Of a DNA stretch of 64,000 nucleotides, positions 7,385 through 38,522 are shown in pieces. The position numbers and the translations under genes are program-made. The notes under the pieces are model-generated. The model saw nothing but the letters and a program-made list of their open reading frames with translations. It was not told the origin of the DNA and searched no databases. Position 1 is the stretch's first letter; every line of letters begins with the position of its first letter. This DNA comes from Clostridia bacterium. GTDB lineage: Bacteria; Bacillota; Clostridia; TANB77; CAG-508. Where the stretch lies: assembly GCA_030539155.1 (NCBI GenBank), contig JAUNSP010000001.1, positions 1,470 through 65,469 on the forward strand, written 5' to 3'.

Positions 7385-7406
7385 CCCCTTTTACTATTTA
7401 AAAATA

Positions 7407-8240
7407 TTATCTCTCACTTGATACTTTTTCTCTATCCGTTTGTTCTACTATATTATCCTCTTGTGTATTTTTATCACTCTGTTTGGTTCTCTTTAATAAA
7501 TTTTCTTGTTTCTCCTTCCTCTGTTGTACCATTAAGTTTTCTCTATATATTGCACTTTTTCCATCTTGATGTTTTCTTTCCTCGGAAATTTGACTCATTA
7601 CCTTTTCATTATATTCTTCTTGTTTTCCAGCAGTAAGAGCCTTATTTGAGTTAAACTTTAATAATAATTTCTCAAATATATTATATTTTGCACCCTTTAC
7701 TACTACTCCTGGTATCTTGGCATCCTTTTTTGCGAATTTATTTATAACTTTAAATGTTTTCTTATCCAAATTATTTTTTTCTAGATTATGTTCTATTCTA
7801 AATGGTAACTCTTTCTTCATTGTTATTCCCAAGAAGTAATCTTTCATCAATTCTTCATCGTTTAAATATTTTAACCCAAAAGCAATTGCTGGATTAATAT
7901 CTCTTTTTATTTTCCTTAAATCCGCCTTATCAAAACCTATCTGTCTGGCCCTTTCTATCAACTCTTTGTTAATAACTTTTGTATTCTTTACAACCAAAGG
8001 TAAATTCCATTTATCTTTCTCATTTTCCCCGAATAAATATGCGTATTCATCCTTCCCTGAAATTAGTATCTTATCCACCTTTTTTTGTACTTTTTCGTCT
8101 TTCATTTCTAAATCATAAGACTGATATTTAGGAACATATTGTTTTTTATCCTCCTCTATATCCTCCTCTTGTTCTATTTCAAAATCAATACCGCTTAATA
8201 TTTTCCTGTTTTTCCGTATCCTCCGTACTACTTTTCTCAC
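7407..8240 (-). CDS. hypothetical K/E-rich protein; true start probably internal, downstream of the 8185 overlap
   Basis: A 277-aa ORF with highly charged low-complexity composition. It overlaps the preceding ORF by 56 nt, so the start was likely over-extended by the ORF caller. Confidence 0.45.
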   Translation of the reverse strand: MRKVVRRIRKNRKILSGIDFEIEQEEDIEEDKKQYVPKYQSYDLEMKDEKVQKKVDKILISGKDEYAYLFGENEKDKWNLPLVVKNTKVINKELIERARQIGFDKADLRKIKRDINPAIAFGLKYLNDEELMKDYFLGITMKKELPFRIEHNLEKNNLDKKTFKVINKFAKKDAKIPGVVVKGAKYNIFEKLLLKFNSNKALTAGKQEEYNEKVMSQISEERKHQDGKSAIYRENLMVQQRKEKQENLLKRTKQSDKNTQEDNIVEQTDREKVSSER

Positions 8241-13806: not shown

Positions 13807-16245
13807 ATGAAGAAAGTAGAACTACTTGCTCCCGCAGGAGATTTTGAATGTGTGAAAGCTGCTGTTCAGAGTGGTGCAGATTGCATTTATTTTGGATGTT
13901 CATCCTTTAATGCACGTGCTTCAGCGAAGAATTTTAATATTGATGAGATGAAAGAAGTTATTGATTACTGCTCCTTGAGAAATGTTAAAACAAACCTAAC
14001 TTTAAACACTCTAATAAAAAATTCCGAATTTAATGATGCTTTACTTGTTGCAAAAAAAGCTTATGAATTTGGAATTGATGCAATTATTGTTCAGGATTTA
14101 GGGCTTGCAAAATTTTTACTAAAAAACTTCAAAGGACTTCCAATTCACGCAAGTACTCAAATGACAGTACATAATCTAGAAGGTGCTCTTTATTTAGAAA
14201 ACCTTGGTTTTAAAAGAATTGTACTTTCCCGCGAACTCTCAATAAATGAGATTGCATATATTTGTAGAAATACAAAAGTCGAAATTGAGGTTTTTATTCA
14301 TGGTGCCCTATGTATTTCCTATTCTGGTCAATGTTTATTTTCCAGCATTGTTGGAGGTAGGTCAGGTAACCGTGGCAGATGTGCGCAACCTTGTAGACTC
14401 CCATATTCATTAGTAGAAGAATCACCAAACTCCTTTAAAAAAATCGACTCTGGTTACCTTCTAAGTACTAAAGATGTTTGTGCTCTAGAATATATTCCAG
14501 ATTTAATAAATGCCGGAGTTTCTTGTTTTAAAATTGAAGGAAGAATGAAATCTCCAGAATATGTTGCAATTGTAACTAGTATCTACAGAAAATATATAGA
14601 TTTACATTATTCAAAAGTTCCCTATTCCATTTGCAAAAATGATATAACCAATTTATTGCAAGTTTTCAACAGAGGTGGATTTTCTAATGGACATTTGAGT
14701 AATGAAGAAAATAGAAATTTAATCTTTAAAGAAAAACAAAACCACATGGGTTTATTCTTAGGAACTATTTATAATTATAATAAAAATAAGGGAATTGTAA
14801 CACTTTGTCTAAATGTACCATTATGTATAGGCGACACAATCTCGTTTGAGAAAGAAAGTTCCTCTTATAAAATTTCTGAACTCATGGATAAGAATAATAA
14901 AAACATCCCAATGGGTGAAAAAGGTACAATCGTATGCTTTGGAAGAATGAAAGGAAATATATCTGTAGGTGATAAAGTGTATAAACTATCAGATAAACTC
15001 TTAAATTCCCAAGTGAAAAAAAATTATATAAACGCAGAAAATGTTAAGCATGAATTATATTGCAATATCACCTTAAGAAAGGATTTTCCTATTGTTTTAA
15101 ATTTACATACAGTTGATGATAAATATAATATATCGGTTAGTTCCGATATTTGCCCTGAAACTGCTATAAAACAACCTATTACCAAAGAAAAAATTATCAA
15201 TCAGCTTTCTAAAACTGGGGATTATCCATTTGAATTTAAGGATATAAAGGTCGAATTAGAAGACAACCTATTTATCCCTAAAATAAGTATTTTAAACGAA
15301 CTTCGTAGAAATGCTTTAAAGGAAATTAGTGATTTAATTATTTCAAAAAAACACCGAACTATTAATTTACAATTTCCTACCCTAGCTGAAACATCAGTTA
15401 ACAGTATTGTCAAGAATAGAAAGATTTCCTTGCTATTCCAAATTTTAGATGTAAATATGGATTATTCATCTATTAGAAAAGTGGACGATATCTATATTCC
15501 TTTTAAGTATTTTTTACAAAAAAAATATAAAGAAATTATTTTACAATTAGGAAAAAAAGGAAAATTATTTATTTATATGCCAACCATTATAAAAAATAAT
15601 TATAAAAATCTATTTTTTAATAATATTTCTGAAATCTTAAAACAATACTTTATTAAAGGTTTTGTTATATCTAACCTAGGTGATTTTATATTATTAAAAG
15701 ACTATTTTTTAATGCAAAATTTAAATGATACAGAATATGAGTTTATTGGAAATTATACCTTAAATATTTTTAATAATTACTCTATCTCGCATCTTAAAAA
15801 TACTGGTGTAACTAGAATAACACCTTCACCAGAATTAAACAATTCCATGCTTGTGGAACTTACTAAAACCTCGGAAATTCCTTGTGAACTCATGGTTTAT
15901 GGAAATGTCCCTATTATGAATTTAGGATATTGTTTACTTGGTAAAAGTAATAAATGTTATCCAACATGTACTTCAAAATGTAAAAATATTAATAATAAAT
16001 ATCACTTAATTGATAGATTAAATTTTAAATTTAGAGTTATTCCTGATAACTTACAAACTATCACATCTATCTATAACAGTAAGATTACCTCATTTGATTT
16101 TACAAAAATTAATACTCCTTATTTGAGAATTAATTTTTTAGAAGAAACGATTGATGATATGAATGCAATTATTGATAAAATTACAAATGGAGAAAAAATT
16201 CAAGGAAGGGAATATACTAACGGAAACTTTAATAAAGATATATAG
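13807..16245 (+). CDS. U32 family peptidase (collagenase-like)
   Basis: MKKVELLAPAGDFECVKAAVQSGADCIYFG... is the characteristic U32 N-terminus. An AGGAG RBS lies 9 nt upstream of ATG 13807. The tracked ORF from 13756 is an over-extension. Confidence 0.85.
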   Translation: MKKVELLAPAGDFECVKAAVQSGADCIYFGCSSFNARASAKNFNIDEMKEVIDYCSLRNVKTNLTLNTLIKNSEFNDALLVAKKAYEFGIDAIIVQDLGLAKFLLKNFKGLPIHASTQMTVHNLEGALYLENLGFKRIVLSRELSINEIAYICRNTKVEIEVFIHGALCISYSGQCLFSSIVGGRSGNRGRCAQPCRLPYSLVEESPNSFKKIDSGYLLSTKDVCALEYIPDLINAGVSCFKIEGRMKSPEYVAIVTSIYRKYIDLHYSKVPYSICKNDITNLLQVFNRGGFSNGHLSNEENRNLIFKEKQNHMGLFLGTIYNYNKNKGIVTLCLNVPLCIGDTISFEKESSSYKISELMDKNNKNIPMGEKGTIVCFGRMKGNISVGDKVYKLSDKLLNSQVKKNYINAENVKHELYCNITLRKDFPIVLNLHTVDDKYNISVSSDICPETAIKQPITKEKIINQLSKTGDYPFEFKDIKVELEDNLFIPKISILNELRRNALKEISDLIISKKHRTINLQFPTLAETSVNSIVKNRKISLLFQILDVNMDYSSIRKVDDIYIPFKYFLQKKYKEIILQLGKKGKLFIYMPTIIKNNYKNLFFNNISEILKQYFIKGFVISNLGDFILLKDYFLMQNLNDTEYEFIGNYTLNIFNNYSISHLKNTGVTRITPSPELNNSMLVELTKTSEIPCELMVYGNVPIMNLGYCLLGKSNKCYPTCTSKCKNINNKYHLIDRLNFKFRVIPDNLQTITSIYNSKITSFDFTKINTPYLRINFLEETIDDMNAIIDKITNGEKIQGREYTNGNFNKDI

Positions 16246-17878: not shown

Positions 17879-19529
17879 TTAAATAGCCTTTTCAGCTATT
17901 TCATTCTTTTCATTTTGACACATATTTAAGGAATTAAATTTATAATAAACTGTTACTTTTTTATCTTGTGAAACTTGAATCTTATCAACTAATGATACTA
18001 ACATTGTTCTTGTAATATTCTGCATTTTCACAAAATCTTTAACTATTGGTAAAATATCTTCAACTTTATCTTCTTCTTTTTCAAATTGTTTCAATTTTCC
18101 AATATTCAACAACAAGTTATCTCTATTTTCCAATGCTCTATTATAAATTCTATTAAAATCTTCATCCTTAATAATGCCATTATACTTATCATCATAAATT
18201 TTGTCAATCTTTGAATTTAAGTCCTCTAACTTTTTATTCATCAAAGTTATTTGACTCTTTATCATATTTTTTCTATTATTAAATTCTTTTTCGGTTTGTT
18301 TTGCAGAGCCAATATATTTATTAGCTTCAAGATACTCTTTACATCTTTCTCTTATAAGCTTTAATATTTCTTCCGTTAATTTTTCTAAATTATTACTATG
18401 TGGAGTACATAACTTTAAACTTGTTGCTGTTGCATAAGTATTACATCTCACATAAAAAATTATCTTTCCACTTTTCTGTTTTTGAGGACATATACTTAAT
18501 TTTTTACCACATTCTTTGCATTCTAGTATTCCTTTTAATAGCCAATCATAAGTCTTTACTCGTGTTGCAGTCCTGCTTGTTATTTGTTCTTGAACTAAAT
18601 TATATGTTTCTACATCTATTATTGGTGTATGTTTTCCCTCTACTAAAATCCAATCTTCTTCTGGTAATGCAAGTATTTTTTTATTCTTATAGCTTACTTT
18701 TCTCATTGTTCCATTTTTCACATATCCAAGATATACTTTATTTTTTAAAATCTTAACAACAGTATTTCTGTTCCATCTTCGTTTTATTTCATCAACTGTT
18801 CTCGTATGCCTATTTCCAACTACATCACAAGGCAATCTTTGTTCTTCTTTTGTCATTATTTTAGCTATCTCTGTTGGTGTTATTCCTGTTTTAGCCATTT
18901 CAAATATTCTTTTTACTAACGGTGCAATTTCATCATCTACTATATAATGATTTTTATCTAACGGATCTTTCTTATAGCCATAAGCAGGATAAGTAACCAT
19001 TACTTTTCCCTCTTTTGCCCTTGTTTTCTTTCCATTTTTTATTTTCTTCGAGCAATCTCTTAAAAACCATTCATTAAAGAATGTTTTAAATTGAGTTATT
19101 TCTTGTGATGTTTCTATATCTCCTGTATCAATGTCATCACATACTGCAATAAATCTTATATTTTTTTCTATAAAGTATTCTTCTAAATAATAATCTACTT
19201 TTGATGATACTCTGCCAAATCTTGATAAGTCTTTTACAATGACCATATTTATTTTTCCATCTTCAATATCTTTTATCATTCTTTGGAAACCGTGGTCTAT
19301 CAAAGTTAGCTCCAGAATAACCATCATCAGTATAAATATCGTGTATCCTTATTCTATTCTCTCTACAAAAATTTTTTAAAAATATTTTTTGAGTGCTTAT
19401 ACTTCCACTCTCTTTTTCATCTTCTGATGTTTCTTTGACTCCATCTACATTATCTATTTCAATTTTTTCATTAGAAAGTCTTGGATATATCCCTGCCACA
19501 TATCTTTCGGGATTTCTTATTGTTATCAT
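17879..19529 (-). pseudogene. large serine recombinase (TndX/TnpX-like) interrupted by a +1 frameshift near 19300 (could be a sequencing indel)
   Basis: The 88-aa ORF 19263..19529 (MITIRNPERYVAGIYPRLSNEK...SISTQK...DDGYSGANFDRP) is the resolvase catalytic N-terminus, preceded by RBS AGAGGAGG. It continues in another frame as (G)FQRMIKDIEDGKINMVIVKDLSRFGR... through a 482-aa ORF with zinc-ribbon and coiled-coil regions. Deleting one base in ccacggtttcc restores ...FDRPGFQRMIKD... Confidence 0.75.
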
Positions 19530-25081: not shown

Positions 25082-28000
25082 TTACTTGTTGTACTTATAT
25101 TCTTCTTTATCTTCAGCAACCATTTCTGTATAATCACATTCATCTTCGTTAACTTTATATTCAATAAAGTCATTATCTTCATCAACATTATTTAATCCAA
25201 AATACTTTTCAAAGAATTTTAGGATTTTTCCAATAATAGTTTGTTTTCTTTCATTTCTATTTCCACCACCAAATCTTCTCATTGGTGGTAATATCTTCTC
25301 TATATCAGTTCCTGTTGTTTTAACTTGTCCATCTCTAAAAGAATTATCAATAAATTTTCTAGTTTCTGTTTCATTTAAATCTTCATCTGATATAAGATTT
25401 TTTAAATCTGTTTCTTTTTGCTCCTTAACAAATTTATTCCAATCTCCATATACATCTGTTTTTGCATTTATTTTTGAAATAAATCCCTCTATTAATTCTT
25501 TCTTGGAGCGAAGTGCTAAACTTGATTTTATTGCCTTATCAATAGACACTAATATTTCCTTGTCAGTACAATTTGATTGATGATATTTAGCAACTAGCAT
25601 TAAGATATAATCTATATTTACTTCTACTTGTTTTACAAGTTCCATTTCAAATACTAGATCATCTTTTATACTTTCACTATCATCATTTCCTGGTCTTGGT
25701 TTAAATTCTTCGTATAAATCTGTATATGTTCCTATATAATCTTGGAAATCTCTTGGAGATAGTAACTCATTTCCCTCAAATTTATCAAATGATGATAATA
25801 TATTTCTTAATCTTAATATATTTCCCATTGATACTATAAAATCTTTTTTAGCTTTTTCTCCTATTATTTTTTCTCCTAATGGATATTTTTGAAGTAACAA
25901 TGCAATTCTTTCTTCATATCCTAGTTGTTTGTTGCCTTTTTCATCTTCATATCCATAATAGTAATCTTCATAAGATTTTAGAAGAACTATTCCACTTGCA
26001 TTTTTATCTCCAAATAGAGCTATTGCATCATTAGTTTGGTCTTGCAAGTTTCTGAAACATACTATATTTCCATAAGATTTTACTGAATTTAATATACGGT
26101 TTGTTCTTGAAAATGCTTGTATTAGTCCGTGCATTTTTAAGTTTTTATCTACCCATAATGTATTTAAAGTAGTTGCATCAAATCCTGTTAAGAACATATT
26201 TACAACTATAAGCAAATCAACTTCTCTGTGTTTTACTCTATCTGATAAGTCTTTGTAGTAATCTTGGAATCCGTTTCCCTCTGATGAAAAGTTTGTTTTA
26301 AATTTCTTGTTATACTCTTTTATTGCAAAGTCTAAAAATTCTCTTGAACTTTGATCCAATAAATCTGTCTCAAAACCTTCATCATCCAAAATACCATCTG
26401 AAGTATCTTCTTCATTTTGTGCAAATGAATATATTGTAGCAATACTCAAATCTATATTTTTTTCTTCTAATTGCTTTTTAAATTCCAAATAATATTTCTT
26501 TGCCATTGGAATTGATGCTACTGCAAACATTGAGTTAAATCCATTCATTCTCTTTCCTTTTAAATCGTAGAATGAACTTCTTTTTGTTTTTTGGTCAAAG
26601 TGTTCTATTATATAGCTTACAACTTTGCTAACTCTTTCGTGAGATGCAAGTGCCTCCTCTGTGTTTATAGCCTTTACTTCTTTGTCTGTCATATTTTCTT
26701 TTTGTTTTAAAGTATTTATATAATCAATTCTAAAAGGTAATACATTTCCATCATTTATTGCATCTACTATTGTATATGTATGTAATTTATCTCCAAATGC
26801 TTGTGCAGTTGTGCAGAAATCTGGATTAACCTTATTTACTGCATTTTTAGCAAATATAGGTGTTCCTGTAAATCCAAACAAGTGATAATTTTTGAAATTA
26901 CTAACTATCATCTTGTGCATATCTCCAAAATGTGAGCGATGACATTCATCAAATATTAAGACTAAATGTTTCTGATATACAGGATGATTTTTGTTTCTTT
27001 TTACAAATTCACTTAATTTTTGAATTGTTGTTACAATTATTCTTGAAGTATTATCTTCTAATTGTTTCTGCAATACTCTTGTACTTCTGTTTCCATTTGC
27101 AGCACCTTTTTCAAATCTGTCATATTCTTTCATTGTTTGATAGTCTAAATCTTTTCTATCTACTACAAACAATACTTTATCTATATAATCTAAGCCACTT
27201 GCAAGTTGTGCAGTCTTAAATGATGTTAATGTTTTTCCAGAGCCTGTTGTATGCCATATATAACCACCAGCCTCTATTGTTCCCATTTTTTTATAATTAG
27301 TTGCTACTTGTATTCTGTTTAGTATCTTTTCTGTTGCTACTATTTGATATGGTCGCATAACAAGTAGTAAATCTTCAGATGTAAATACACAATATTTTGT
27401 TAGTATATTCAATATTGTATGTTTTGAGAAGAAAGTTCTAGTAAAATCAACTAAATCTGGAATAACTTTATTACTTCCATCAGCCCAAAAAGATGTAAAT
27501 TCAAAGCTGTTACTTGTTTTTTTACTTTTATTTCTTGTATTTGTTTGTTCTTTTATATGACTTTCTCTTGTAGTATTTGAATAGTATTTTGTATTTGTTC
27601 CATTTGATATAACAAATATTTGCACATATTCATATAAACCACTACCTGCCCAAAAACTATCTCTTTGGTATCTGTTTATTTGGTTAAAAGCCTCTTTTAA
27701 AGGAACTCCTCTCCTTTTAAGTTCAATATGAACAAGAGGTAATCCGTTTACAAGAACAGTTACATCATATCTATTATCATAATTCCCATTATTCTCTACA
27801 TATTGATTTATTACTTGTAATCTATTGTTATGAATATTCTTTTTATCTATTAAATAAATATTTTTAGATGTTCCATCATCTCTTTTTAAAACTTGAATAT
27901 AGTCTTCTTGTATTTTTCTCGTTTTTTCTACAATACCATCATTATTATTTGAAATATTGTTATTGAAAAATCTTTCCCATTCGCTATCTGTAAATTTATA

Positions 28001-28216
28001 ATCATTTAATAATTCAAGTTCTTTACAAAGATTATCTTTTAGTGAATTACTATCGTGAATTTTTAAATAATCATATCCTTGTTCTCCAAGCATTCTTATA
28101 AACTCATTTTCTAATGCAGATTCACTTTGATAGGCATCTGATTTCTTTTTTAATGGCTCATATTCTGTTACAACTGTGGAATCATTCATTTCCATTACTA
28201 CATTATATTTACTCAT
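25082..28216 (-). CDS. hsdR: Type I restriction enzyme R subunit
   Basis: A 1044-aa protein with SF2 helicase motifs (HTTGSGKT Walker A, FDECHRS DEAH-like box). It lies downstream of hsdS and hsdM in the operon arrangement. Confidence 0.9.
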   Translation of the reverse strand: MSKYNVVMEMNDSTVVTEYEPLKKKSDAYQSESALENEFIRMLGEQGYDYLKIHDSNSLKDNLCKELELLNDYKFTDSEWERFFNNNISNNNDGIVEKTRKIQEDYIQVLKRDDGTSKNIYLIDKKNIHNNRLQVINQYVENNGNYDNRYDVTVLVNGLPLVHIELKRRGVPLKEAFNQINRYQRDSFWAGSGLYEYVQIFVISNGTNTKYYSNTTRESHIKEQTNTRNKSKKTSNSFEFTSFWADGSNKVIPDLVDFTRTFFSKHTILNILTKYCVFTSEDLLLVMRPYQIVATEKILNRIQVATNYKKMGTIEAGGYIWHTTGSGKTLTSFKTAQLASGLDYIDKVLFVVDRKDLDYQTMKEYDRFEKGAANGNRSTRVLQKQLEDNTSRIIVTTIQKLSEFVKRNKNHPVYQKHLVLIFDECHRSHFGDMHKMIVSNFKNYHLFGFTGTPIFAKNAVNKVNPDFCTTAQAFGDKLHTYTIVDAINDGNVLPFRIDYINTLKQKENMTDKEVKAINTEEALASHERVSKVVSYIIEHFDQKTKRSSFYDLKGKRMNGFNSMFAVASIPMAKKYYLEFKKQLEEKNIDLSIATIYSFAQNEEDTSDGILDDEGFETDLLDQSSREFLDFAIKEYNKKFKTNFSSEGNGFQDYYKDLSDRVKHREVDLLIVVNMFLTGFDATTLNTLWVDKNLKMHGLIQAFSRTNRILNSVKSYGNIVCFRNLQDQTNDAIALFGDKNASGIVLLKSYEDYYYGYEDEKGNKQLGYEERIALLLQKYPLGEKIIGEKAKKDFIVSMGNILRLRNILSSFDKFEGNELLSPRDFQDYIGTYTDLYEEFKPRPGNDDSESIKDDLVFEMELVKQVEVNIDYILMLVAKYHQSNCTDKEILVSIDKAIKSSLALRSKKELIEGFISKINAKTDVYGDWNKFVKEQKETDLKNLISDEDLNETETRKFIDNSFRDGQVKTTGTDIEKILPPMRRFGGGNRNERKQTIIGKILKFFEKYFGLNNVDEDNDFIEYKVNEDECDYTEMVAEDKEEYKYNK

Positions 28217-28226
28217 AACTTGCTCC

Positions 28227-29408
28227 TTAATTTTCTTCTTTTAATTCTTTAAATGTTAATAATTTATCTCTGTAATATTCATATTGCTTTTGTCTTGCTT
28301 CTATTTCAGCAGGTAAACCTTCTGAAATGTTATTTGTTAACTCATAAAATTTTTCCAATATGTTTGCAATCTTCTCTTGTTTATCTAATGTAGGAATTGG
28401 AATCACTATTTCTTTTAGTGCTGGGACACTAGAATGAACTACTTTGCTTTTTACTTTCCCCTTACTTTTTTGCATTTGAGCATTAGTTGTTGATAGTACA
28501 TAGGCTAAATATTTCGGATTCTGTTTATGTTTCATCACAACAATATCGCCACCTGCTAAGCACTTATTTTGTCCTAGATATACTATGGACTTTCCTATTT
28601 CTTCAACACTTTCACCTGTTATTGCAAACAATACATCTCCATATTCAAAATATTTTTTTGATTTTATTTTATTTATATCAGTATGTGATATGCAATTATC
28701 AAAAGTTATATTATATGATGTATATATTTCTCCATATCTAACACAATCAATTCCATCCTCTGTTACTTCATCTCTTTTGATTCCTGCTCCTCTATACATA
28801 TCTGTTGCAATTTCATCTAAACTTTTATATTCAACATCTTCATTTTCAAATTTTAAAATTTCATTTCTATAATATTCATATTGTTTTTGTCTAGCTTTCA
28901 GCTCTGCTGAAAGCTCTGTAAAATCGTCTAAAATACGGACAATTTCGCATTGTACTTCCAATGGAGGTACAGGCACAGTTAATTGAGAATATATACTTAT
29001 CCAATGTCTTGTGTGTGTTCCTGGCTCAAATTTAATGCAAGACATTGCATAATAAATATATCTAAAATTAACATTTTCATTTATAGGTCTAAGTATTTTC
29101 ATTGCTGAAGATTTAACTTTAAAACCAAAATCCACCCAATGGAAGCCTGTAGTAAAATCATCAAATATAATAGTCGGTTCTTTTTTACTAGCAATATAAA
29201 TTCCGTTTGTTTCGTTTGTGTAACCTAATATGAATGTTTGTCCAGCCGTTAATACTGGTATATCGTATGAATCATCATATTTAGTGGATTTAACAATATA
29301 CTTAGTTGGCTGTTCATATTTTAAGCAACTTTCCAATTTCTTATATTCGACTCCATTCGGACATAATCGCTCAATTAATTCTTCTAATTTGCTCATATTA
29401 CACCTCAA
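28227..29408 (-). CDS. hsdS: Type I restriction-modification specificity subunit (two TRDs); likely start at MSKLEEL (29396)
   Basis: A 393-aa protein with two target-recognition halves separated and followed by the conserved repeat EIARQKQYEYYRNEIL / EIEARQKQYEYYRDKLL. It overlaps the hsdM stop. Confidence 0.85.
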   Translation of the reverse strand: MRCNMSKLEELIERLCPNGVEYKKLESCLKYEQPTKYIVKSTKYDDSYDIPVLTAGQTFILGYTNETNGIYIASKKEPTIIFDDFTTGFHWVDFGFKVKSSAMKILRPINENVNFRYIYYAMSCIKFEPGTHTRHWISIYSQLTVPVPPLEVQCEIVRILDDFTELSAELKARQKQYEYYRNEILKFENEDVEYKSLDEIATDMYRGAGIKRDEVTEDGIDCVRYGEIYTSYNITFDNCISHTDINKIKSKKYFEYGDVLFAITGESVEEIGKSIVYLGQNKCLAGGDIVVMKHKQNPKYLAYVLSTTNAQMQKSKGKVKSKVVHSSVPALKEIVIPIPTLDKQEKIANILEKFYELTNNISEGLPAEIEARQKQYEYYRDKLLTFKELKEEN

Positions 29409-30951
29409 TTTCTGAAATTATTTTACTAATTTCGTCACGAAGTACTTGCTCTCTTGCAACTATTGTTTCAATTTCTTTGTTTAATTCTACAATGTCAATT
29501 TTTTCTCTTGTATCTTCTTGTTCAACATAAGTTGATACAGATAAATTATAGTCATTTTCTTCTATCTCTTTATTTGAAACAAGTTTAGATACATATTCTT
29601 TATCTTGTCTATCTGCAAATATTTTAACAATATTTTCTATATTTTCATCTGTTAATTTATTGTTGTTTGTAACTTTTACACATTCATTTGTTGCATCTAT
29701 AAATAATGTACTATTATCTTTTTTACTCTTTTTTAATACCATTATACAAGTTGCAATAGATGTACCAAAGAATAAGTTTCCTGGCAATTGAATTATGCTA
29801 TCTACGAAGTTATTATCTATCAAATATTTTCTGATTTTTTGTTCTGCTCCACCTCTATATAAAATTCCTGGGAAACAAACAATTGATGCAGTTCCATTTG
29901 TTGCTAACCAAGATAAAGAGTGCATTATAAATGCAAAATCTGCTTTTGATTTTGGTGCTAATACTCCTGCTGGAGAATATCTTGGGTCATTAATTAAAAG
30001 TGCATTATCATCTCCTGCCCATTTTATTGAATATGGAGGATTAGACACTATAACCTCAAAAGGCTCATCATCCCAATGTTGTGGTGTAAGTAATGTATCT
30101 TCACAAGCTATATCAAATTTATCATATCCTATATCGTGTAAAAACATATTTATCCTGCATAAGTTATAAGTAGTAATATTTATTTCTTGTCCATAGAAAC
30201 CATTTCTAACATTTTCTTTTCCAAGTATTTTAGATGCTTTTAATAAAAGTGAGCCAGATCCACAAGCTGGGTCATACACTTTGTTTACTGATGTTTTTCC
30301 TACTATTGCAAGTTTAGTTAAAAGTTCACTAACTTCTTGTGGTGTATAAAATTCTCCACCAGACTTACCTGCATTAGAAGCATACATACTCATTAAAAAT
30401 TCATAAGCATCTCCAAAAGCATCAATTTTGTTATCTTGATAATTTCCAAGAGGAATATTGGCAATTCCATCTAATATTTTAACTAATTTTTCATTTCTCT
30501 TTGCAACTGTTGCTCCTAATTTATTACTATTAACATCTATATCAGCAAATAAACCATAAAAGTCATCCTCGCTTTCTGCTCCTTTTGCTGAGTTTTCAAT
30601 GCTATTAAATACTTTTTCTAATGTTTCATTCAAGTTTTCATCATTTTTTGCTCTTTGACAAATATTACAAAACAATTCAGATGGCAATATAAAAAATCCT
30701 TTTTCTTTTACTAAACTTGTTCTTTCTGATTCTGCCATTTCATCTGATATTTTTGAATAATCAAATTCTTTATCTCCAGCTTTTCTTTCTCCATCATTTA
30801 TATATTTAGTAATGTTTTCTGATATGTATCTATAAAACATTATTCCTAATATGTATTGTTTGAAATCCCACCCATCTACTGAGCCTCTTAAATCATCTGC
30901 TATTGACCATATTGCTTTATGTATTTCTTCTCTTTCTCTTGAATTATTCAT
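29398..30951 (-). CDS. hsdM: Type I restriction-modification N6-adenine DNA methyltransferase subunit
   Basis: A 517-aa protein with HsdM N-domain, AdoMet motif I (DPACGSGSLL) and motif IV NPPYS. Confidence 0.9.
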   Translation of the reverse strand: MNNSREREEIHKAIWSIADDLRGSVDGWDFKQYILGIMFYRYISENITKYINDGERKAGDKEFDYSKISDEMAESERTSLVKEKGFFILPSELFCNICQRAKNDENLNETLEKVFNSIENSAKGAESEDDFYGLFADIDVNSNKLGATVAKRNEKLVKILDGIANIPLGNYQDNKIDAFGDAYEFLMSMYASNAGKSGGEFYTPQEVSELLTKLAIVGKTSVNKVYDPACGSGSLLLKASKILGKENVRNGFYGQEINITTYNLCRINMFLHDIGYDKFDIACEDTLLTPQHWDDEPFEVIVSNPPYSIKWAGDDNALLINDPRYSPAGVLAPKSKADFAFIMHSLSWLATNGTASIVCFPGILYRGGAEQKIRKYLIDNNFVDSIIQLPGNLFFGTSIATCIMVLKKSKKDNSTLFIDATNECVKVTNNNKLTDENIENIVKIFADRQDKEYVSKLVSNKEIEENDYNLSVSTYVEQEDTREKIDIVELNKEIETIVAREQVLRDEISKIISEIEV

Positions 30952-31636: not shown

Positions 31637-31669
31637 CTCATCACTTTTTGTCTAATCTTATCATAAAAT

Positions 31670-31717
31670 GCAAAAAAAATAAAGGTACATAGAAACTAAA
31701 TTTCCATATACCTTTTT
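31670..31717 (-). terminator. rho-independent terminator downstream of the sortase B operon (copy 1 of a duplicated 48-bp module)
   Basis: In minus orientation the hairpin aaaaaggtatatggaaatttagtttctatgtaccttt is followed by tttattttttttgc. It is near-identical to 38474..38522. Confidence 0.6.
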
Positions 31718-31738: not shown

Positions 31739-32518
31739 TTATTTTACTAACTTTGAATGTAACACTACCCTATATTTATTATCATTAGCACAAGTAGAAA
31801 GTGTTAAAATGCTATCGGCACTATTTACATCAACATTAAAATCGTAAACACTTCTATTTTTTGCATTTTCAATATAATTCATAAATTCTTCATCTAAATT
31901 GAAATTTATTGTGGTATCATAATTATCTTTTTCAATTTGATATACTGCAAAAACTTGATATTCAAATTGACCTTGCTCGGTTATAAAAATCACTTTTCTA
32001 TTTTCTTGATTTTCATACCAAGATTTATTTAAAATATTTTTAAGTGTTGCAAACATACTACCATCTCTGCGATTATGTCCATATACTATTATATTTCTAT
32101 CCGTTCCATCTATTTTATTTCTATAATCTGCAAATACCCAACCTGCCCCATTTAATGACTTATCAAAACTATGCGTCAAATAAAAATCATTATCATTTTT
32201 CTTTACAACTGGATATTCTATGTCAGTCCCATTTACTTTAATCCAAGCTACTGTATCTGAATTAGTTGCTTTTAATTGTTCAAAGTCTATCTTATAACTT
32301 TTATCTTTACTTTCAGTATTTGAATCTTCGTTGTTATCTTCAACTGTTACAGCATTTGAAATTTCATCGATTAGTGTTTCAGTATCTTTGTTGTTTTTTA
32401 TCCAAGTTATTATGTTATATACACAAATAATAATGCTTATAAAAAAAACAATAAGTATTATGTTTAAGATTATTTTCTTCTTTTTTGTATTTTCTTTCTT
32501 GTGTTTTGATTTTCTCAT
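31739..32518 (-). CDS. srtB: class B sortase
   Basis: A 259-aa protein with an N-terminal TM anchor, catalytic His (VYGHN), TLSTC active-site Cys and a C-terminal Arg region. The adjacent substrate carries NPKTG. Confidence 0.8.
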   Translation of the reverse strand: MRKSKHKKENTKKKKIILNIILIVFFISIIICVYNIITWIKNNKDTETLIDEISNAVTVEDNNEDSNTESKDKSYKIDFEQLKATNSDTVAWIKVNGTDIEYPVVKKNDNDFYLTHSFDKSLNGAGWVFADYRNKIDGTDRNIIVYGHNRRDGSMFATLKNILNKSWYENQENRKVIFITEQGQFEYQVFAVYQIEKDNYDTTINFNLDEEFMNYIENAKNRSVYDFNVDVNSADSILTLSTCANDNKYRVVLHSKLVK

Positions 32519-32579: not shown

Positions 32580-33152
32580 TTAATGCTTATTTACTTTGTC
32601 CAATTTTTTCTTTTTTATTATTATACCAAATGCTCCCAATAATGCAATTGCTAATATTACAAAATAAAGAACTATGTTATCTCCTGTTTTGGGATTTGAA
32701 GTATTATCATTAGAAGTTTGTGTATTATCTTCAATAATGTTTTCACTAGTATTGTTAGTTACTTGATTTTCAGTTGTTTCGTTTTTATTTGTTTCATTCT
32801 CTATCGTTGTTTCTTTTGCTTTAACTGTAACAGTTGTGTTCATATAATTACCACCATTATAGTCTGCTACTCTAATGCTATATGTTCCATCTGCAAAACT
32901 ATAATTTAATTCACAAGAATAATTTTGATTATTATCTACATTGCAAGTTTCCATATATATTAAGTTTTCATCAGAATAAACTAATATTGCAACAGCTAAA
33001 ACATCTACATTGGCTTTTCCTGATACTGTTACTTTATTTTTTGAAGGTGTTGCATTAACTGTTGAAATATTTCCTGCAAAAACTGAAGATGATAACATTA
33101 AAAGCACAAACATTGTTAAAAGTGAAACTGCTATTATTTTTATATTTTTCAT
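32580..33152 (-). CDS. cell-wall-anchored surface protein with NPKTG sorting signal (sortase B substrate)
   Basis: A 190-aa protein with a signal peptide, N/T-rich region, and NPKTGD followed by a hydrophobic helix and the basic tail KKKKLDKVNKH. Confidence 0.75.
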   Translation of the reverse strand: MKNIKIIAVSLLTMFVLLMLSSSVFAGNISTVNATPSKNKVTVSGKANVDVLAVAILVYSDENLIYMETCNVDNNQNYSCELNYSFADGTYSIRVADYNGGNYMNTTVTVKAKETTIENETNKNETTENQVTNNTSENIIEDNTQTSNDNTSNPKTGDNIVLYFVILAIALLGAFGIIIKKKKLDKVNKH

Positions 33153-33162
33153 ATTCTTCCTC

Positions 33163-34692
33163 CTATTTATTATTTATCCATTCAACACCAGCACCTGCAC
33201 CAAATGTTGCTCCACTAAATGTTATTTTATTAGTTGTCGCACCTTTTTTTACTGCTGTTACAGATACTGATTTAGGAGCTTCTTCTCCTACGTCCTTCCA
33301 TAAAATATAATCAGATCCACTTATATTTCCACTACTATTATGAACATCCCCAACAGCTTGAGCTATTGTAGTTTTTATACTTCCATCTTTATAAGTAGCA
33401 TTTACAATTAAATCATAATCATTACAAGTAGTTGTATCCTCGTGATAGAAAACTGCTGCTATTCTATATTTATCAGTATCAACATTAAGATTTCCATCTA
33501 CATTAGCAAATGCTCCGTGATAAAATGTATTATTACCTGCATTTACATCTCCAATAAATATACCTATTCTATTAATTGTAATATATCCAATTGTGCCATC
33601 TTCTAATTTAATTTGTACAGGAATTTCATTATAATAATTTGATAAAATAGTTATTTTACCTGTTTCACTATTTATACTTACTGCTGAACTTGGAACTTTG
33701 TCATCTGCTAGTTTAATCTCTGATATTTTACTAGATGTTATAGAAGATAAACTAATTGTGTTTTCTCCATAATAAGCTGTTACTTTCCCTGGATTACTTT
33801 TTGTTGTAGCACTTAAATCAGCACCATTCCAAATTGTAAAATCATAATTATCTGGCATAACATTTGTAGAAACTTCTACACCTTTGAATCCAGATTTTAC
33901 AAAAGTAATTCCTGTGATGTAAAATCCAAAGTAATCTTCTTTTGTTTTATCTTGTGCAATATCTTTATCTAATAAGTCATTACTATGTGCCTCAATTCTA
34001 ATATTTGCATAATTATCACTTTTTTTATCAAAGTGAGTTTCAAAAATATGTCTGTTTTCACTATCTAATAAAGCATATGAATATTCATTTGCAGCATATG
34101 TATATGTTTTATCATCTCCTATGGCAATTTTAGTAACATAGAATTCTGTTATATTATCCATATTAAAACTGTCTGGTACTGCAAGTTGTTCTCCTATAGA
34201 TACATTAGTAAATGATTTTCCATTAAACGTAAAGTCAAATTTCATTGCTTCAATAGGTGGTTCTTCTGGTCCAGGACCTCCTGGATTAGGATTGGTTAAA
34301 TTTTCAATTTTAAATTCAAGTGATGAAGTACTATTGAAAGCATCTGTTTGGGTTATAACACTACCACTATTTTTTACATTCATCAAATCATAATGAAAAT
34401 CTAATTTAAAACTTGTCCCTACTGGTATTTTTACTGTTGCTCCATTATTTAATACATTTATTTCTGCATCAATTGTAGTAGTATTTGAGATATCAACAAA
34501 AGTAATAACATCATTTCCTCCATTTGGCGTTCTTACTCTTAACATATTGTTATCTGCTTCAAGTGTAAACCCATTTTCAGCAGATATAGTAATAGTATAT
34601 GTATTTTCTGCAAAAACATTTGTAGGAATAAAAGCTATGCACATACATAAAATAAGCATTATTGCTAAAATTCTTTTCTTTATCATTAACAT
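33163..34692 (-). CDS. secreted surface/adhesin-like protein (509 aa), no sorting signal
   Basis: Signal peptide MLMIKKRILAIMLILCMCIAFIPTNVFA and beta-rich T/S/N-rich sequence. It is the first gene of the operon with the NPKTG protein and srtB. Confidence 0.6.
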   Translation of the reverse strand: MLMIKKRILAIMLILCMCIAFIPTNVFAENTYTITISAENGFTLEADNNMLRVRTPNGGNDVITFVDISNTTTIDAEINVLNNGATVKIPVGTSFKLDFHYDLMNVKNSGSVITQTDAFNSTSSLEFKIENLTNPNPGGPGPEEPPIEAMKFDFTFNGKSFTNVSIGEQLAVPDSFNMDNITEFYVTKIAIGDDKTYTYAANEYSYALLDSENRHIFETHFDKKSDNYANIRIEAHSNDLLDKDIAQDKTKEDYFGFYITGITFVKSGFKGVEVSTNVMPDNYDFTIWNGADLSATTKSNPGKVTAYYGENTISLSSITSSKISEIKLADDKVPSSAVSINSETGKITILSNYYNEIPVQIKLEDGTIGYITINRIGIFIGDVNAGNNTFYHGAFANVDGNLNVDTDKYRIAAVFYHEDTTTCNDYDLIVNATYKDGSIKTTIAQAVGDVHNSSGNISGSDYILWKDVGEEAPKSVSVTAVKKGATTNKITFSGATFGAGAGVEWINNK

Positions 34693-34821
34693 TTCCTCCT
34701 AAATTTTTTCTTTATTTTAAAATATAAAAAACATCTATACTGTTTTAATTATTTATCCCCTCCTCTTATGTAAAAAATTAATATTTTTGACTATTATATA
34801 TGTTTATTATAATTAAATAAA

Positions 34822-34846
34822 CATATATTTCGCATTTGTCATTGAC
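34822..34846 (-). promoter_or_regulatory. conserved upstream cis-element, copy 1 (GTCAATGACAAATGCGAAATATATG on minus; contains the palindrome TGTCAtTGAC)
   Basis: A 25-mer that is 22/25 identical to the site at 38429..38453. It lies about 45-70 nt upstream of TATAAT hexamers for the minus-strand operon starting at 34692, in the divergent region shared with the regulator gene at 34912. Confidence 0.5.
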
Positions 34847-34911
34847 TTTTTGGGAATTGATTTTATTTTTAATATATGCTATTTTATAATATAGTAATAT
34901 AGAACAATGAA

Positions 34912-36657
34912 ATGAGAGGTTTTACTATGAATTTTAATGAAGAATTAAACAATTATTTAAAAATTTTAAATTGCAGTTCAAAAGATTTATCCATTGCATC
35001 TGGTTTATCTCCTGCAACAATTAGCAGATATAGAAATACTGACAGAGTCCCAATTTACAATAGTTCTCATATAGAGAAACTTGCTATTGGCATTGAAAAA
35101 ATCGCAAAGGTAAAGAATATTAATACCATAACAAAAGATATTGTTTTAGAGAATCTAAAATCTACGTTATTAATGGGCAACTTAAACTTTGAACAATTAA
35201 GGAATAATTTTAATTTTTTAATTGATACTCTTGAAATAAATGTTTCAGAAATGGCAAAAGCATTAAGTTTTGATCCTTCTTATTTTTCAAGAATTCGAAC
35301 AGGAAAAAGAACTCCTGCAAACCCAGAAGCATTTATAAATTCAGTTTGCAATTTTATTGCACATAAATATAATTCTACTGATGCTAAAAATTCAGTAGCA
35401 CTATTCTTAAATTGTTCATTAGAAGATATTTTAGATGAGTCATCCTATTATGAAAAATTACAAATAGCTTTGAGTCAAAATTCCTTAACAAATACTAACG
35501 AAATAGATATTTTTTTACAAAAGTTAGATGATTTTAATTTAAATGAATACATAAAAGCAATCCATTTTGATGAGTTAAAAGTTCCAAATGTTCCTTTTTA
35601 CAAGCATAGTTCTAAAACATATTATGGAACCGAAAAAATGAAACAAGCAGAATTAGATTTTTTTAAATCCACCGTACTCTCTAAATCTAATGAAGATGTT
35701 TTTATGTGTAGTGATATGCCTATGGAAGATATGGCTAAAGATGTCAAATTCAGCAAAAAATGGATGTTTGCAATTGCCATGACATTAAAAAAAGGATTAC
35801 ATATTAATATGATTCATAATCTTGATAGACCTTTTAACGAACTAATGTTAGGGCTTGAGAGTTGGATTCCAATATATATGACAGGACAAGTTTCTCCTTA
35901 TTATTTGACTAATTCTCAAAGTAATGTATGTTGTCAATTAAATTATGTTTCTGGAAAATATGCACTTTGTGGAGAATGTATAAGAGGTTTTCATAATGAT
36001 GGAAAATATTATCTAACAGGAAATATGGATGAAGTATCTTATTATAAAAACAAAGCTAAACTTATATTAGGCAAAGCTAATTTCTTAATGAATATTTATA
36101 CAAATGCCAATGAAAATCTTTTTAAAACTTTTATATTTAATTATTCAAAATTAGAAGGTCACAGAAAAAGGTTTCTTGCTTCGCTTCCTATTGCAACAAT
36201 TTCTGAAGAATTACTTTTAAAGATTTTAAAAAGAAATCAATTATCTGAAAAAGAAATTTCTAATATTTTAAAGAATGTACAACAACAAAAAGAAATTATA
36301 AATACAATACTAAAAAACAATACCATATTTGATAAAATACCTAAATTGTCAATAGAAGATTTTGATAATTCTAAAATAAATCTTTTTTTAGCAACTACTT
36401 TTTGTGATAAACAAATCTCATACACTTATGAAGAATATTTAGAGCATTTAGATTTGACTGAAAAATTTTCAAAAAAAACTAAAAATTATAGTTATGAAAT
36501 TAATCCAAACAATACTTTTAGAAACATTCAAGTTACTATTTTAAAAGATAATTGTGTAATTATTTCTAAAAATCTTGAGCCATCAATTCATTTCGTAATC
36601 AAACACCCTAAACTACGAAATGCAATAGAAAATTTTATTGCTCCTGTTGTACAATAA
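34912..36657 (+). CDS. large transcriptional regulator with two tandem XRE-type HTH domains and a roughly 450-aa C-terminal domain of unknown function
   Basis: A 581-aa protein with HTH 1 LSIASGLSPATISRYRNTDRVP and HTH 2 VSEMAKALSFDPSYFSRIRTGKRTP. The probable start is MNFNEEL at 34927. Confidence 0.65.
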   Translation: MRGFTMNFNEELNNYLKILNCSSKDLSIASGLSPATISRYRNTDRVPIYNSSHIEKLAIGIEKIAKVKNINTITKDIVLENLKSTLLMGNLNFEQLRNNFNFLIDTLEINVSEMAKALSFDPSYFSRIRTGKRTPANPEAFINSVCNFIAHKYNSTDAKNSVALFLNCSLEDILDESSYYEKLQIALSQNSLTNTNEIDIFLQKLDDFNLNEYIKAIHFDELKVPNVPFYKHSSKTYYGTEKMKQAELDFFKSTVLSKSNEDVFMCSDMPMEDMAKDVKFSKKWMFAIAMTLKKGLHINMIHNLDRPFNELMLGLESWIPIYMTGQVSPYYLTNSQSNVCCQLNYVSGKYALCGECIRGFHNDGKYYLTGNMDEVSYYKNKAKLILGKANFLMNIYTNANENLFKTFIFNYSKLEGHRKRFLASLPIATISEELLLKILKRNQLSEKEISNILKNVQQQKEIINTILKNNTIFDKIPKLSIEDFDNSKINLFLATTFCDKQISYTYEEYLEHLDLTEKFSKKTKNYSYEINPNNTFRNIQVTILKDNCVIISKNLEPSIHFVIKHPKLRNAIENFIAPVVQ

Positions 36658-36704: not shown

Positions 36705-36745
36705 ATAAATAGAAAAATCTACCAATTAAATCAGTAGATTTTTCT
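36705..36745. terminator. bidirectional terminator (14-bp perfect stem)
   Basis: atagaaaaatctac-caattaaatca-gtagatttttctat lies between convergent genes ending at 36657 (+) and 36744 (-). Confidence 0.65.
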
Positions 36746-37178
36746 ATTTATTCCAATTATCTGTTTTTGGTATTTCTATCTTCTTCAATTCATTATAATT
36801 TTCTGTTTCATAAGTTATATGATTATTATAATAAAAATTGCTATGAAATGAATATATTTTTTGTATTCCATTATTTATATCAAAAATGTATTCTCTAGAA
36901 CAATCTAGCACATTTATATCTGCTTCTCTGCCTATTCTTATATTATTTAAAGCATTATATATATTATGTATAATATGTATATTATCTGTTTTATAATATA
37001 AAAATCCTCCTTCTGTTTCTTCTATCATTCTCACAGAAATAATATTATTTACTTCTATTGTTAAAAGTTTGTTGTCATTTAATTCAAAAATATTTGTTTC
37101 CTTTTTATATTTTAAAATAATTCCAACTATACATATGATTAAAATTAATGTACTAGAACATAAGATTATCTTTTTCAC
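36744..37178 (-). CDS. hypothetical membrane-anchored protein (144 aa)
   Basis: An N-terminal signal/anchor (MKKIILCSSTLILIICIVGIIL) followed by a soluble domain, cotranscribed with 37197..38366. Confidence 0.5.
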   Translation of the reverse strand: MKKIILCSSTLILIICIVGIILKYKKETNIFELNDNKLLTIEVNNIISVRMIEETEGGFLYYKTDNIHIIHNIYNALNNIRIGREADINVLDCSREYIFDINNGIQKIYSFHSNFYYNNHITYETENYNELKKIEIPKTDNWNK

Positions 37179-37196: not shown

Positions 37197-38366
37197 TCAT
37201 TTAGCTTTTTCTATATATCCATAAACTGATTCTGCATACATATCATCTGTTATTGTTTGATATCTACTACCATCATAATCATCAGTAAATCCATTATAGG
37301 CTTTATATATTTCTCCTGTGTTAGTGTCATAAACTCTTTCATACCCCAGTGTTGCATCACTATATTTTTGACTTGTGACATCATATGTTTTTTGTCTAGC
37401 ACTCCAAGCAGAATTATATGAATCATATGCTTTTTGAATTGCTGCATTCATTGATAATGCTTTTTGTGTTTGTTCTTTACCATTCTCAATAGTCGTATTA
37501 ACAAATAAGTCATTATAAGTAAGAGAATTTAATGATTTAGTTAAAAGTTCTTCATAATTAATTAAATCATACTCTCCTGTTGTAATTCCCATAACATTAT
37601 ATGCTGTATAATATAAAACATCATATCCTAGTGTATCAGTATGGCTTCCCATATCCATAATTGTAGCCATAAATAGTCCTTCTCCATTTTTGCCTGTTTT
37701 GGTATCTTGAAATGTTCCTCTTAATATTTTATCATCATTAGCAATATCTTTTAGTAGAGAATTATTCTCGAAACTTTCTATTACTGCAAAGTTATTGAGA
37801 TCTGGAGCATTAAATGTTGAACCCATTTCTTTAGCAAATTTCACATAGTCGTTAAAACTATTATAAAAATTTTCTACTTTACCATCATTAACAACAATTG
37901 CCTCAGCAAGTAATTTATTTCCACCATATAATTTATAATAGTTTTCATACCAAGTTTTAGCTTTTTCATTTTTCAATAGTGGTTCAGCTTTCAAAATAGA
38001 ATATATTTGATATCTATCATCATTTGGATTATATACTCTGATAGAAAAATACATATTATCTCCAGCAGTTTCTACTTTCCACCCAGATGGAATTTGCATT
38101 TTAAAATTACTGTGTTCATACTCCACAAGTTCAGTATTTTTAACTTGACTTTCTGTTACATTATAATCCTTTTCAGATAGGTTTTCACTTTCTGCAATAG
38201 CATTATTAAATTTCTCTTTTTTATTTAAAAACAATATTATTACTATTACTATAATAATTCCTATTATTCCTATTATTATTTTAGAAATCGTAAAATAGGT
38301 TTCATTTCTACTTTTATCATTTAATTCTTTATTTTCGTTTTGTTTTTCAATACTTTTTTCTTTCAT
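37197..38366 (-). CDS. hypothetical membrane-anchored extracellular protein (389 aa)
   Basis: An N-terminal charged region, then a TM helix IIIGIIGIIIVIVIILFL and a large Y/N/D-rich ectodomain. A GGAG RBS lies upstream. Confidence 0.55.
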   Translation of the reverse strand: MKEKSIEKQNENKELNDKSRNETYFTISKIIIGIIGIIIVIVIILFLNKKEKFNNAIAESENLSEKDYNVTESQVKNTELVEYEHSNFKMQIPSGWKVETAGDNMYFSIRVYNPNDDRYQIYSILKAEPLLKNEKAKTWYENYYKLYGGNKLLAEAIVVNDGKVENFYNSFNDYVKFAKEMGSTFNAPDLNNFAVIESFENNSLLKDIANDDKILRGTFQDTKTGKNGEGLFMATIMDMGSHTDTLGYDVLYYTAYNVMGITTGEYDLINYEELLTKSLNSLTYNDLFVNTTIENGKEQTQKALSMNAAIQKAYDSYNSAWSARQKTYDVTSQKYSDATLGYERVYDTNTGEIYKAYNGFTDDYDGSRYQTITDDMYAESVYGYIEKAK

Positions 38367-38428
38367 CTTTTAAACTCCACACTTTATTAATTTATAAAAA
38401 GATTATAACATATATATATTATTATTAT

Positions 38429-38453
38429 GTTATATTTCCAATTTGTCATTGAC
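38429..38453 (-). promoter_or_regulatory. conserved upstream cis-element, copy 2 (GTCAATGACAAATTGGAAATATAAC on minus), with extended -10 TGtTATAAT 21 nt downstream
   Basis: The same motif as 34822..34846, with a TGnTATAAT extended -10 at about 38402-38410 and about 36 nt to the ATG at 38366. Confidence 0.5.
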
Positions 38454-38473
38454 ATTTTAGTATTATTTATAAA

Positions 38474-38522
38474 GCAAAAAAAATAAAGGTACACAGGAAT
38501 TTATTTCCCATATACCTTTTGG
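38474..38522 (-). terminator. rho-independent terminator downstream of the adhesin gene (copy 2 of the duplicated module)
   Basis: gcaaaaaaaataaaggtacacaggaatttatttcccatatacctttt is about 90% identical to 31670..31717. In minus orientation it forms a stem followed by a T-run. Confidence 0.6.

Follow-up and report, generated by a model that had tools for sequence, protein, structure and literature searches.

The DNA analysed here, referred to as the window, is a stretch of 64,000 nt from Clostridia bacterium (assembly GCA_030539155.1, contig JAUNSP010000001.1), and all positions are given in window numbering unless a locus of another genome is named. It contains two copies of the sequence TATATTTCnnATTTGTCATTGACnTTTT, at 34824-34851 and 38431-38458, which are identical at 25 of 28 positions and have no third copy within the window. 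Both belong to larger palindromic elements, hereafter O1 and O2, which we regard as probable operators of the neighboring regulator, a protein with two helix-turn-helix (HTH) motifs; through them, this protein would control its own gene and two operons for surface proteins. The sites and the genes concerned are as follows.

34827-34857: putative operator O1, 23-bp core 34831-34853, centre 34842, ATTTCGCATTTGTCA-T-TGACTTTTTGGGAAT
38434-38464: putative operator O2, 23-bp core 38438-38460, centre 38449, ATTTCCAATTTGTCA-T-TGACATTTTAGTATT
34927-36657, + strand: regulator gene, 576 aa, start set by homologues and a ribosome-binding site (open reading frame listed from 34912)
33163-34692, - strand: first gene of target operon 1, 509-aa secreted protein with no assigned function, probable start 34686
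32580-33152, - strand: cell-wall-anchored protein of 190 aa with an NPKTG sorting signal
31739-32518, - strand: class B sortase gene srtB (TIGR03064, 190 bits against a cut-off of 154)
37197-38366, - strand: first gene of target operon 2, 389-aa membrane-anchored protein of no known family
36744-37178, - strand: second gene of target operon 2, 144-aa membrane-anchored protein of no known family

The first-pass annotation of this DNA had described a 25-bp motif at these two places, and its coordinates hold for both copies. Read on the + strand, 34822-34846 is CATATATTTCGCATTTGTCATTGAC and 38429-38453 is GTTATATTTCCAATTTGTCATTGAC. A recount gives 21 identical bases of 25 instead of the 22 reported; all 21 specified bases of the earlier consensus are identical between the copies, and the match extends rightwards past that interval. 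The inner palindrome that had been pointed out, GTCA-T-TGAC, is indeed found in both copies. The full element is a dyad of the form T-T-n-CCAA-N5-TCA-n-TGA-N5-TTGG-n-A-A, centred at 34842 (O1) and 38449 (O2), and it measures about 27-31 bp, not 25. The original 25 nt correspond to the left outer arm and both inner half-sites, i.e., about two-thirds of the dyad, the right outer arm at the first site (34847-34857) lying outside. O1 is located, as first described, between the divergent 509-aa and double-HTH regulator genes, while O2 precedes the 389-aa gene by 63 nt and follows, at a distance of 25 nt, the terminator of a 1045-aa adhesin gene. In a MAFFT alignment of the two intergenic regions, the motifs were not even brought together and nothing else could be aligned, so that O1 and O2 resemble each other in the motif and nowhere else.

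Comparison of the dyad with the rest of the window indicates that it is a specific signal. The 23-nt pattern has two matches with at most three mismatches, against 0.01 expected, and none of 100 dinucleotide shuffles contained two. The 13-mer core alone has no significance when two mismatches are allowed. A weight matrix was built from 26 operators of distant loci, leaving out the window and loci L001, L002, and L004. With this matrix O2 scores 24.6 and O1 17.9, the next best window position reaching 12.4, while the best score per simulated 64-kb window (n = 200) has a mean of 11.3, a standard deviation of 2.5, and a largest value of 19.6. The third-best match in the window, CCAAATTTTAGATGTAAATATGG at 15438-15460, lies inside a U32 peptidase gene and scores 11-12, which is at chance level. 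In approximately 1.0 Mb covering about 90 related loci, no second operator scoring 12 or more was detected, each locus having a single site, which makes the two sites of the window unusual and not a property of a loose motif. Seven of these loci (L154, L165, L166, L169, L171, L174, and L175) carry a second, convergent srtB/389 operon whose sequence ends before its promoter. Shorter patterns are unspecific: a loose 16-base pattern gave 108 single unrelated matches in viral contigs, and 11 of the 15 matches to a 20-base pattern, searched in one genome per species, are in unrelated phyla, as expected from chance.

The dyad is conserved together with the regulator gene. Six contigs whose regulators are 88%, 86%, and 60% identical keep the arrangement divergent from that gene, namely genes for a 503-aa protein, an anchored protein, and a sortase; in these contigs, the intergenic region has diverged except for TTTGTCATTGAC-n-TTTTTGG-n-AATTG, which does not vary. 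Eighty further metagenome loci with regulators 47-61% identical provided 52 distinct regulator-upstream regions, and a 23-bp quasi-palindrome with the consensus CCAAATTGTCAcTGACAATTTGG is above threshold in 47 of them, its centre being mostly 78-82 nt before the regulator start codon. The dyad also occurs in three more distant loci, L222-L224, which are GC-richer, one being GC-rich. A few members (L007, L208, L215, L185, and L188) have a divergent site or no detectable dyad at the expected place; in L007 (7277-7450), GGCAATGCC is found in place of GTCAATGAC.

Symmetry was analysed over a 31-nt element in 38 distinct operators. The pair at ±11 is C:G in 97% of them, the pair at ±8 is A:T in 95%, and the pair at ±2 is C:G in 89%, the best conserved positions being the outer CCAA/TTGG arms. 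The inner half-sites are more variable and read TTTCC or TTTCA in many lineages. Furthermore, the pair at ±12 is complementary in 66% of the operators with all four pairings represented (A:T in 10, G:C in 8, T:A in 4, and C:G in 3). Such compensatory changes in the two arms between lineages are those expected for a symmetric dimer with lineage-specific specificity, and from sequence they fit a dimer-binding site.

Two further loci deserve mention. In L135, a Ruminococcus metagenome-assembled genome (MAG) from reindeer, a near-perfect dyad, CCAATTTGTCATTGACATTTTGG, at 2696-2718 is 24/24 identical to O2; it is located 200 nt upstream of a gene for a stand-alone 189-aa double-HTH protein (1938-2507) that is 35% identical to the N-terminus of the regulator, and TGATATAAT lies 37 nt from its inner half-site. 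In L217, an insertion sequence with a UPF0236 transposase (6713-8230) separates the target operon from the operator/regulator pair; the operator and the regulator gene stay 80 nt apart, and the target operon has thus been naturally uncoupled from the site controlling it.

The regulator itself had been given as 581 aa, while the supported start at 34927 gives 576 aa. It contains two Cro/C1-type HTH motifs, at residues ~18-37 and 106-125, followed by a ~390-aa tandem PLD-like domain. The first HTH is recognized by Pfam HTH_26 (E = 8.8e-7, 29.5 bits against a cut-off of 22, residues 12-58) and the second gives a weak HTH_31 match (16.7 bits); the HTH domains have the five-helix fold of the lambda-repressor type and resemble those of the classical repressors P22 c2, 434, DdrO, Stl, and ImmR. 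The C-terminal 385 aa have no Pfam match even at E up to 10 and no NCBIfam match, and searches of the PDB sequences with the single regulator sequence or with a profile returned none. An AlphaFold model computed from a 100-sequence alignment (mean pLDDT 86.7; a model from 32 close homologues, with a C-terminal pLDDT of 53, was discarded) predicts for residues ~186-576 (35482-36657) a tandem PLD-like fold closest to TrmBL2 and TrmB. Pfam searches with four C-terminal domains at E up to 10 gave no match to a TrmB model, the likeness to TrmB being structural only, and the HTH plus TPR-like all-helical peptide-binding architecture of RRNPP-type regulators (PlcR, PrgX, Rgg, and ComR) is not found in the protein.

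Alignments inspected by eye show in the first PLD repeat a conserved IHN(L/I)DRPF (IHNLDRPF in the window) with no Lys at +2 and in the second HPK(L/M)RxAxEN (HPKLRNAIEN in the window), i.e., an HxK with Glu at +8 and not Asp at +7; the canonical HxKx4D is not evident. These degenerate HKD motifs suggest a pseudo-enzyme serving as a sensor. TrmB proteins are ligand-controlled, an effector domain of this kind being joined in them to a DNA-binding domain (PMC4158304), and because of this fold analogy, the C-terminal domain of the regulator is probably a ligand sensor. The family is very large: 6521 clusters were found at E ≤ 0.001 in a first search and at least 8000 starting from a divergent member, mostly from human-gut assemblies, and the matches that carry names are MAGs of Clostridia, Lachnospiraceae, Oscillospiraceae, and Acutalibacteraceae. 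Beyond the HTH, neither Pfam nor NCBIfam has a model for the family; no relative has a solved structure, and no paper on this family or motif was found in a literature search whose coverage left out subscription journals.

An intriguing correspondence links this protein to the dyad. In the second recognition helix (D-x-S-[Y/F/L]), the identity of residue 119 varies with that of operator position 8: Tyr119 occurs with G at position 8 (xGTCA or xGGCC) in the window group, L205, L212, L214, L135, L222, L223, and L224, while Phe or Leu occurs with T (TTTCC or TTTCA) and Asn with AGGCA (L007). Hardly any variation is seen in the first helix (ISRYR) or in the outer CCAA arms. These observations agree with the adjacent protein being the binder, and the suggestion that the double-HTH protein is a candidate binder gains from the presence of the dyad beside its homologues. 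That four HTH motifs would map onto four subsites is speculative.

Promoter elements around the sites were located by their distance from the dyad centre, the family set comprising 47 operators. The following are predicted in the window.

34857-34890, + strand: predicted regulator promoter, with TTGATT (34857-34862), a 17-nt spacer ending in TGC, and TATTTT (34880-34885) overlapping TATAAT (34885-34890)
34793-34798, - strand: predicted -10 hexamer of target operon 1 (509-aa/190-aa/srtB), TATAAT, at 44-49 nt from the O1 centre
38402-38410, - strand: predicted promoter for target operon 2 (389-aa/144-aa), consisting of the extended -10 TGTTATAAT without a -35 match; its hexamer lies at 42-47 nt from the O2 centre

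On the target side of the family, an extended -10 (TGnTAnAAT) has its hexamer starting at 42-44 in 33 of the 47 operators, and exactly at 43 in 29; there is no -35 match, the arm being followed by an A-rich stretch. On the regulator side, TATAAT stands at 43-48, as in the window, preceded by an overlapping TGnTATnnT at 38-43, for which a TTG at 15-17 fits as a -35. The conserved -10 hexamers thus lie 43-48 nt from the centre in both directions, which would place the dyad near -55 of two divergent promoters, in a symmetric position. The earlier remark that the sites lie upstream of -10 elements is accordingly sharpened into a fixed distance on both sides, and the extended -10 noted at the second site is present as TGTTATAAT at 38410-38402 of the - strand. 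The predicted transcription start of the 389-aa/144-aa operon is near 38395, the O2 centre being ~54 nt upstream, that of the 509-aa operon is near 34786, and that of the regulator gene falls at 34892-34897 on the + strand; the hexamer at 34793-34798 is kept as TATAAT, TATAAT, and TACAAT in the window, L001, and L002, respectively. The other side of O2 runs directly into the adhesin terminator, and from its sequence, O2 corresponds to the putative operator together with one half, the target-side one, of the divergent promoter found in the family. A sigma-54 promoter (TGGCAC-N5-TTGC or GGCA-type variants) was considered and rejected; the spacing is wrong, the required GG is GT in O1, and the GC element is absent from O2. 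The 509-aa gene has a predicted leader (34692-34786, - strand) of ~94 nt, whereas most family members have one of ~15-30 nt. Within this leader, GAGGAGGGG at ~34762-34775 looks like a strong ribosome-binding site, yet no usable start codon follows, and it may be left over from an earlier start of the gene; comparison with L002 and ribosome-binding-site spacing place the probable start of the 509-aa frame at 34686 (MIKKRIL, as in L002). Riboswitch leaders, responding to c-di-GMP among others, are used for some clostridial sortase substrates; a search of the whole window with Rfam covariance models gave no family reaching its gathering score, which makes a riboswitch or leader RNA unlikely.

The gene content of related loci bears on the relationship between the two operons. 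In L002, whose regulator is 86% identical, the 503-aa gene is followed by genes for a 178-aa anchored protein, the sortase, a 396-aa protein, and a 147-aa protein, and the start of the 396-aa gene overlaps the sortase stop codon in a single operon. The 396-aa protein is 66% identical to the 389-aa protein of the window, while no tblastn match to the 144-aa protein was obtained with the 147-aa gene; these two correspond by position and by being membrane-anchored, and in nothing else. In the family as a whole, genes for anchored proteins and class B sortase as well as 389-like and 144-like genes are found in varying mixes in the operon divergent from the regulator. In L010-L012 and at least 12 metagenome loci, the immediate divergent neighbor of the regulator is a 389-like gene and the sortase is absent, and a 144-like gene accompanies the 389-like gene in several loci. 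Judging from this linkage, the 389-like gene is a member of the regulator's usual target set. In the window, the 389-aa/144-aa pair is detached and convergent to the regulator gene, with an operator and a promoter of its own. The strongest argument that O2 is probably functional and that both operons probably form one regulon is that 389-like genes belong to the regulator-linked operon elsewhere and that the detached pair has an operator and a promoter of its own here.

The module is part of a larger mobile region. Chromosomal genes (mreBCD, radC, mecA, and others) occupy up to ~17 kb of the window, to the left of an integrated conjugative element that spans 17879-64000. The element encodes a large serine recombinase (17879-19327), an AraC/GyrI regulator, a type I restriction-modification system (25082-30951), a NikA-like protein, a TED/SpaA adhesin and its sortase, a VirB4-like ATPase, an M23 peptidase, TrbL, VirD4, a relaxase, ParB, and a 1754-aa SNF2 protein. 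The gene upstream of O2 is that of the 1045-aa thioester/SpaA adhesin. Two copies of a 53-nt direct repeat, 85% identical, bracket the entire regulator/srtB/389-aa module.

38468-38520, - strand: 53-nt repeat copy with a terminator (hairpin 38519-38485), insulating O2 and its promoter from the adhesin gene
31664-31716, - strand: 53-nt repeat copy with a terminator (hairpin 31715-31681), the terminator after srtB

Because of these bracketing repeats, the regulator module looks like a cargo cassette inserted in the conjugative element beside the adhesin terminator. Between the convergent regulator and 144-aa genes, a 23-nt inverted repeat with 91% complementarity and a 1-nt loop (36705-36751) looks like a bidirectional terminator.

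Building on the repeat, its conservation and symmetry, its fixed geometry, and the gene linkage, all of which are directly seen, we infer that the motif is the core of a ~30-bp dyad operator for the adjacent 576-aa regulator and that O1 and O2 control the regulator's own gene and both operons, a reading to which we assign a probability of about 0.78. In the most likely scenario, a regulator dimer would bind O1 and O2. O1 would be centred ~55 nt upstream of two divergent starts, those of the regulator gene and of the 509-aa/NPKTG-protein/sortase B operon, while O2 would bring the 389-aa/144-aa operon under the same protein as operon 1. A single operon of five target genes, as in the relative L002, would have been split, its last two genes having moved across the regulator gene together with a second operator and an extended -10. 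The regulator would activate the target promoters, presumably on ligand binding by its PLD-like (TrmB-like) C-terminal domain; activation is proposed because the site is clear of the core promoters, the target promoters have no -35, and the position is kept to within 1 bp on the same helical face. The idea put forward in the first-pass annotation, a site for a dimeric regulator uniting the operons in one regulon, is thus supported on comparative grounds by the 47 of 52 upstream regions, the compensatory arm changes, and the gene linkage.

Several observations weigh against this proposal. Each operator combines one good outer arm with one degenerate outer arm, on opposite sides: CGCA replaces CCAA on the left of O1 and TTAG replaces TTGG on the right of O2, and only 12 of 22 paired positions in O1 and 16 of 22 in O2 are self-complementary. 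The target-side -10 of O1 is 1 nt off the family norm and has no TG, and a second, less conserved TATAAT at 34806-34811, 31-36 nt from the O1 centre, implies a different geometry. At O2, the inner half-site ATGACA, 17 nt, and AATAAT form a 10/12 sigma-A match that overlaps the operator and would imply repression. Furthermore, the two-operator locus has no independent replicate among the other loci examined, and the co-variation of residue 119 with position 8 was counted without correction for phylogeny.

The most serious competitor, which we nevertheless consider rather unlikely, keeps the same protein and the same sites and changes the sign: the adjacent regulator would bind the dyad as a repressor of its own gene and both operons until released by a ligand. 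Most relatives of the two domains, including most Cro/C1-type proteins, are repressors, and the HTH domains here are like those of P22 c2, 434, DdrO, Stl, and ImmR. Extended -10 promoters can be active constitutively, with no need for a -35 or an activator. The ATGACA-17 nt-AATAAT promoter overlaps the dyad at O2, and the TTG of the -35-like hexamer on the regulator side abuts the right arm. TrmB, the closest C-terminal fold, is a sugar-released repressor (PMC4158304). However, a 31-bp footprint, from about -70 to -40, would leave the -10 and -35 positions of the targets uncovered, and the promoter overlapping O2 has no conservation in the family.

That O2 would be a decaying relic of the rearrangement, with O1 alone functional, appears improbable. 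Its right arm is degenerate (TTAG), no second operator is found in the other loci examined, and the 53-nt repeats bracketing the module suggest a recent rearrangement. Yet O1 and O2 are alike only within the operator and their flanks are unalignable, as expected under selection on the site; moreover, O2 outscores O1 with an independent matrix, keeps the family spacing to a perfect TGTTATAAT, and is identical over 24/24 positions to the operator of the reindeer Ruminococcus MAG.

Slightly less probable still is that the shared sequence is ordinary sigma-A architecture, with -35-like TTGACn/ATGACA on both strands and T/A-rich flanks, without any dedicated regulator. Two back-to-back -35 hexamers would yield the inner palindrome, and the same 21 bases occur in two unrelated Clostridia MAGs (L129 5005-5028 and L130 6621-6644) with ATGACA 17 nt before TGnTATACT or TGnTATAAT. 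Judging from sequence, they would act there as an ordinary -35 region, the L130 copy being upstream of a lepA-like gene. In the regulator family, however, the -10 elements stand 36-38 nt from the -35-like hexamer and not 17; this spacing, seen on both sides of O1, at O2, and in L135, differs from the 16-18 nt that separate a TTGACA-like -35 from a conserved -10. The outer CCAA/TTGG arms, which are the best conserved part, are not -35-like, the TTTCC/TTTCA half-sites of many lineages are poor -35 matches, and the compensatory arm changes would be left unexplained.

Finally, binding by another protein (an element-encoded factor or the LytTR protein), or a role of the dyad as a recombination or transfer site, is the least credible explanation: the conjugative element in the window does encode a relaxase, a serine recombinase, and a NikA-like protein, and inverted repeats are typical of such sites, but the same dyad stands beside regulator homologues in chromosomal contexts without transfer genes and stays with the regulator gene despite the insertion sequence in L217, while LytTR sites are direct repeats, not a dyad, and nothing points to the LytTR protein that had been named as a candidate binder.

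Several known systems resemble the proposed arrangement. In Gram-positive bacteria, RlrA, RofA/Nra, and EbpR are encoded divergently from sortase-dependent surface or pilus loci, which they regulate positively. The window shares with them a regulator divergent from a sortase and substrate operon and a binding site common to both promoters, while the protein family and the DNA motif are unrelated and the targets here are a class B sortase, an NPKTG signal, and proteins with no assigned function. Class I activation by CRP-type dimers likewise uses a single dyad upstream of the -35 position to serve divergent promoters. The dyad described here is similarly clear of the -35 position and serves two divergent promoters from equivalent positions, although its centre is near -55 and not -61.5, the fold is different, and activation is a proposal. 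As with the Cro/C1 (XRE) repressors and the C proteins of restriction-modification systems, a dyad operator in the regulator's own promoter region implies autoregulation by a dimer. In contrast to these proteins, the regulator is 576 aa long, with two HTH motifs per chain and a ~390-aa PLD-like domain, and its operator is ~30 bp long and lies near -55 of two divergent promoters, while theirs measure 14-20 bp and lie over the core promoter. Palindromic operators and autoregulation are also found in the TrmB family (PMC4158304), whose members have a winged HTH; the regulator has two Cro/C1 HTH motifs and two PLD-like repeats instead, and no Pfam TrmB match.

A palindromic operator beside a regulator gene is a familiar kind of arrangement; what the comparative data add for this family is a DNA site, a promoter geometry, and a candidate specificity residue. 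At somewhat less than even odds, the sites would show which operator code and which regulon logic are used by a very large and unnamed family of one-component regulators of gut and rumen Clostridia, in which sortase-B-dependent and other surface operons may be switched on from a dyad at -55 by a small molecule, possibly a carbohydrate, with specificity set by a few residues such as residue 119 and regulons growing by operator duplication. The window is probably a natural example of such growth, an element-borne operon having been split and its detached half having kept its control through a second operator. Since the regulator family is linked to surface-protein operons of abundant gut Clostridia, including those for class B sortase and NPXTG-anchored substrates, the control of surface structures in these bacteria becomes directly testable.
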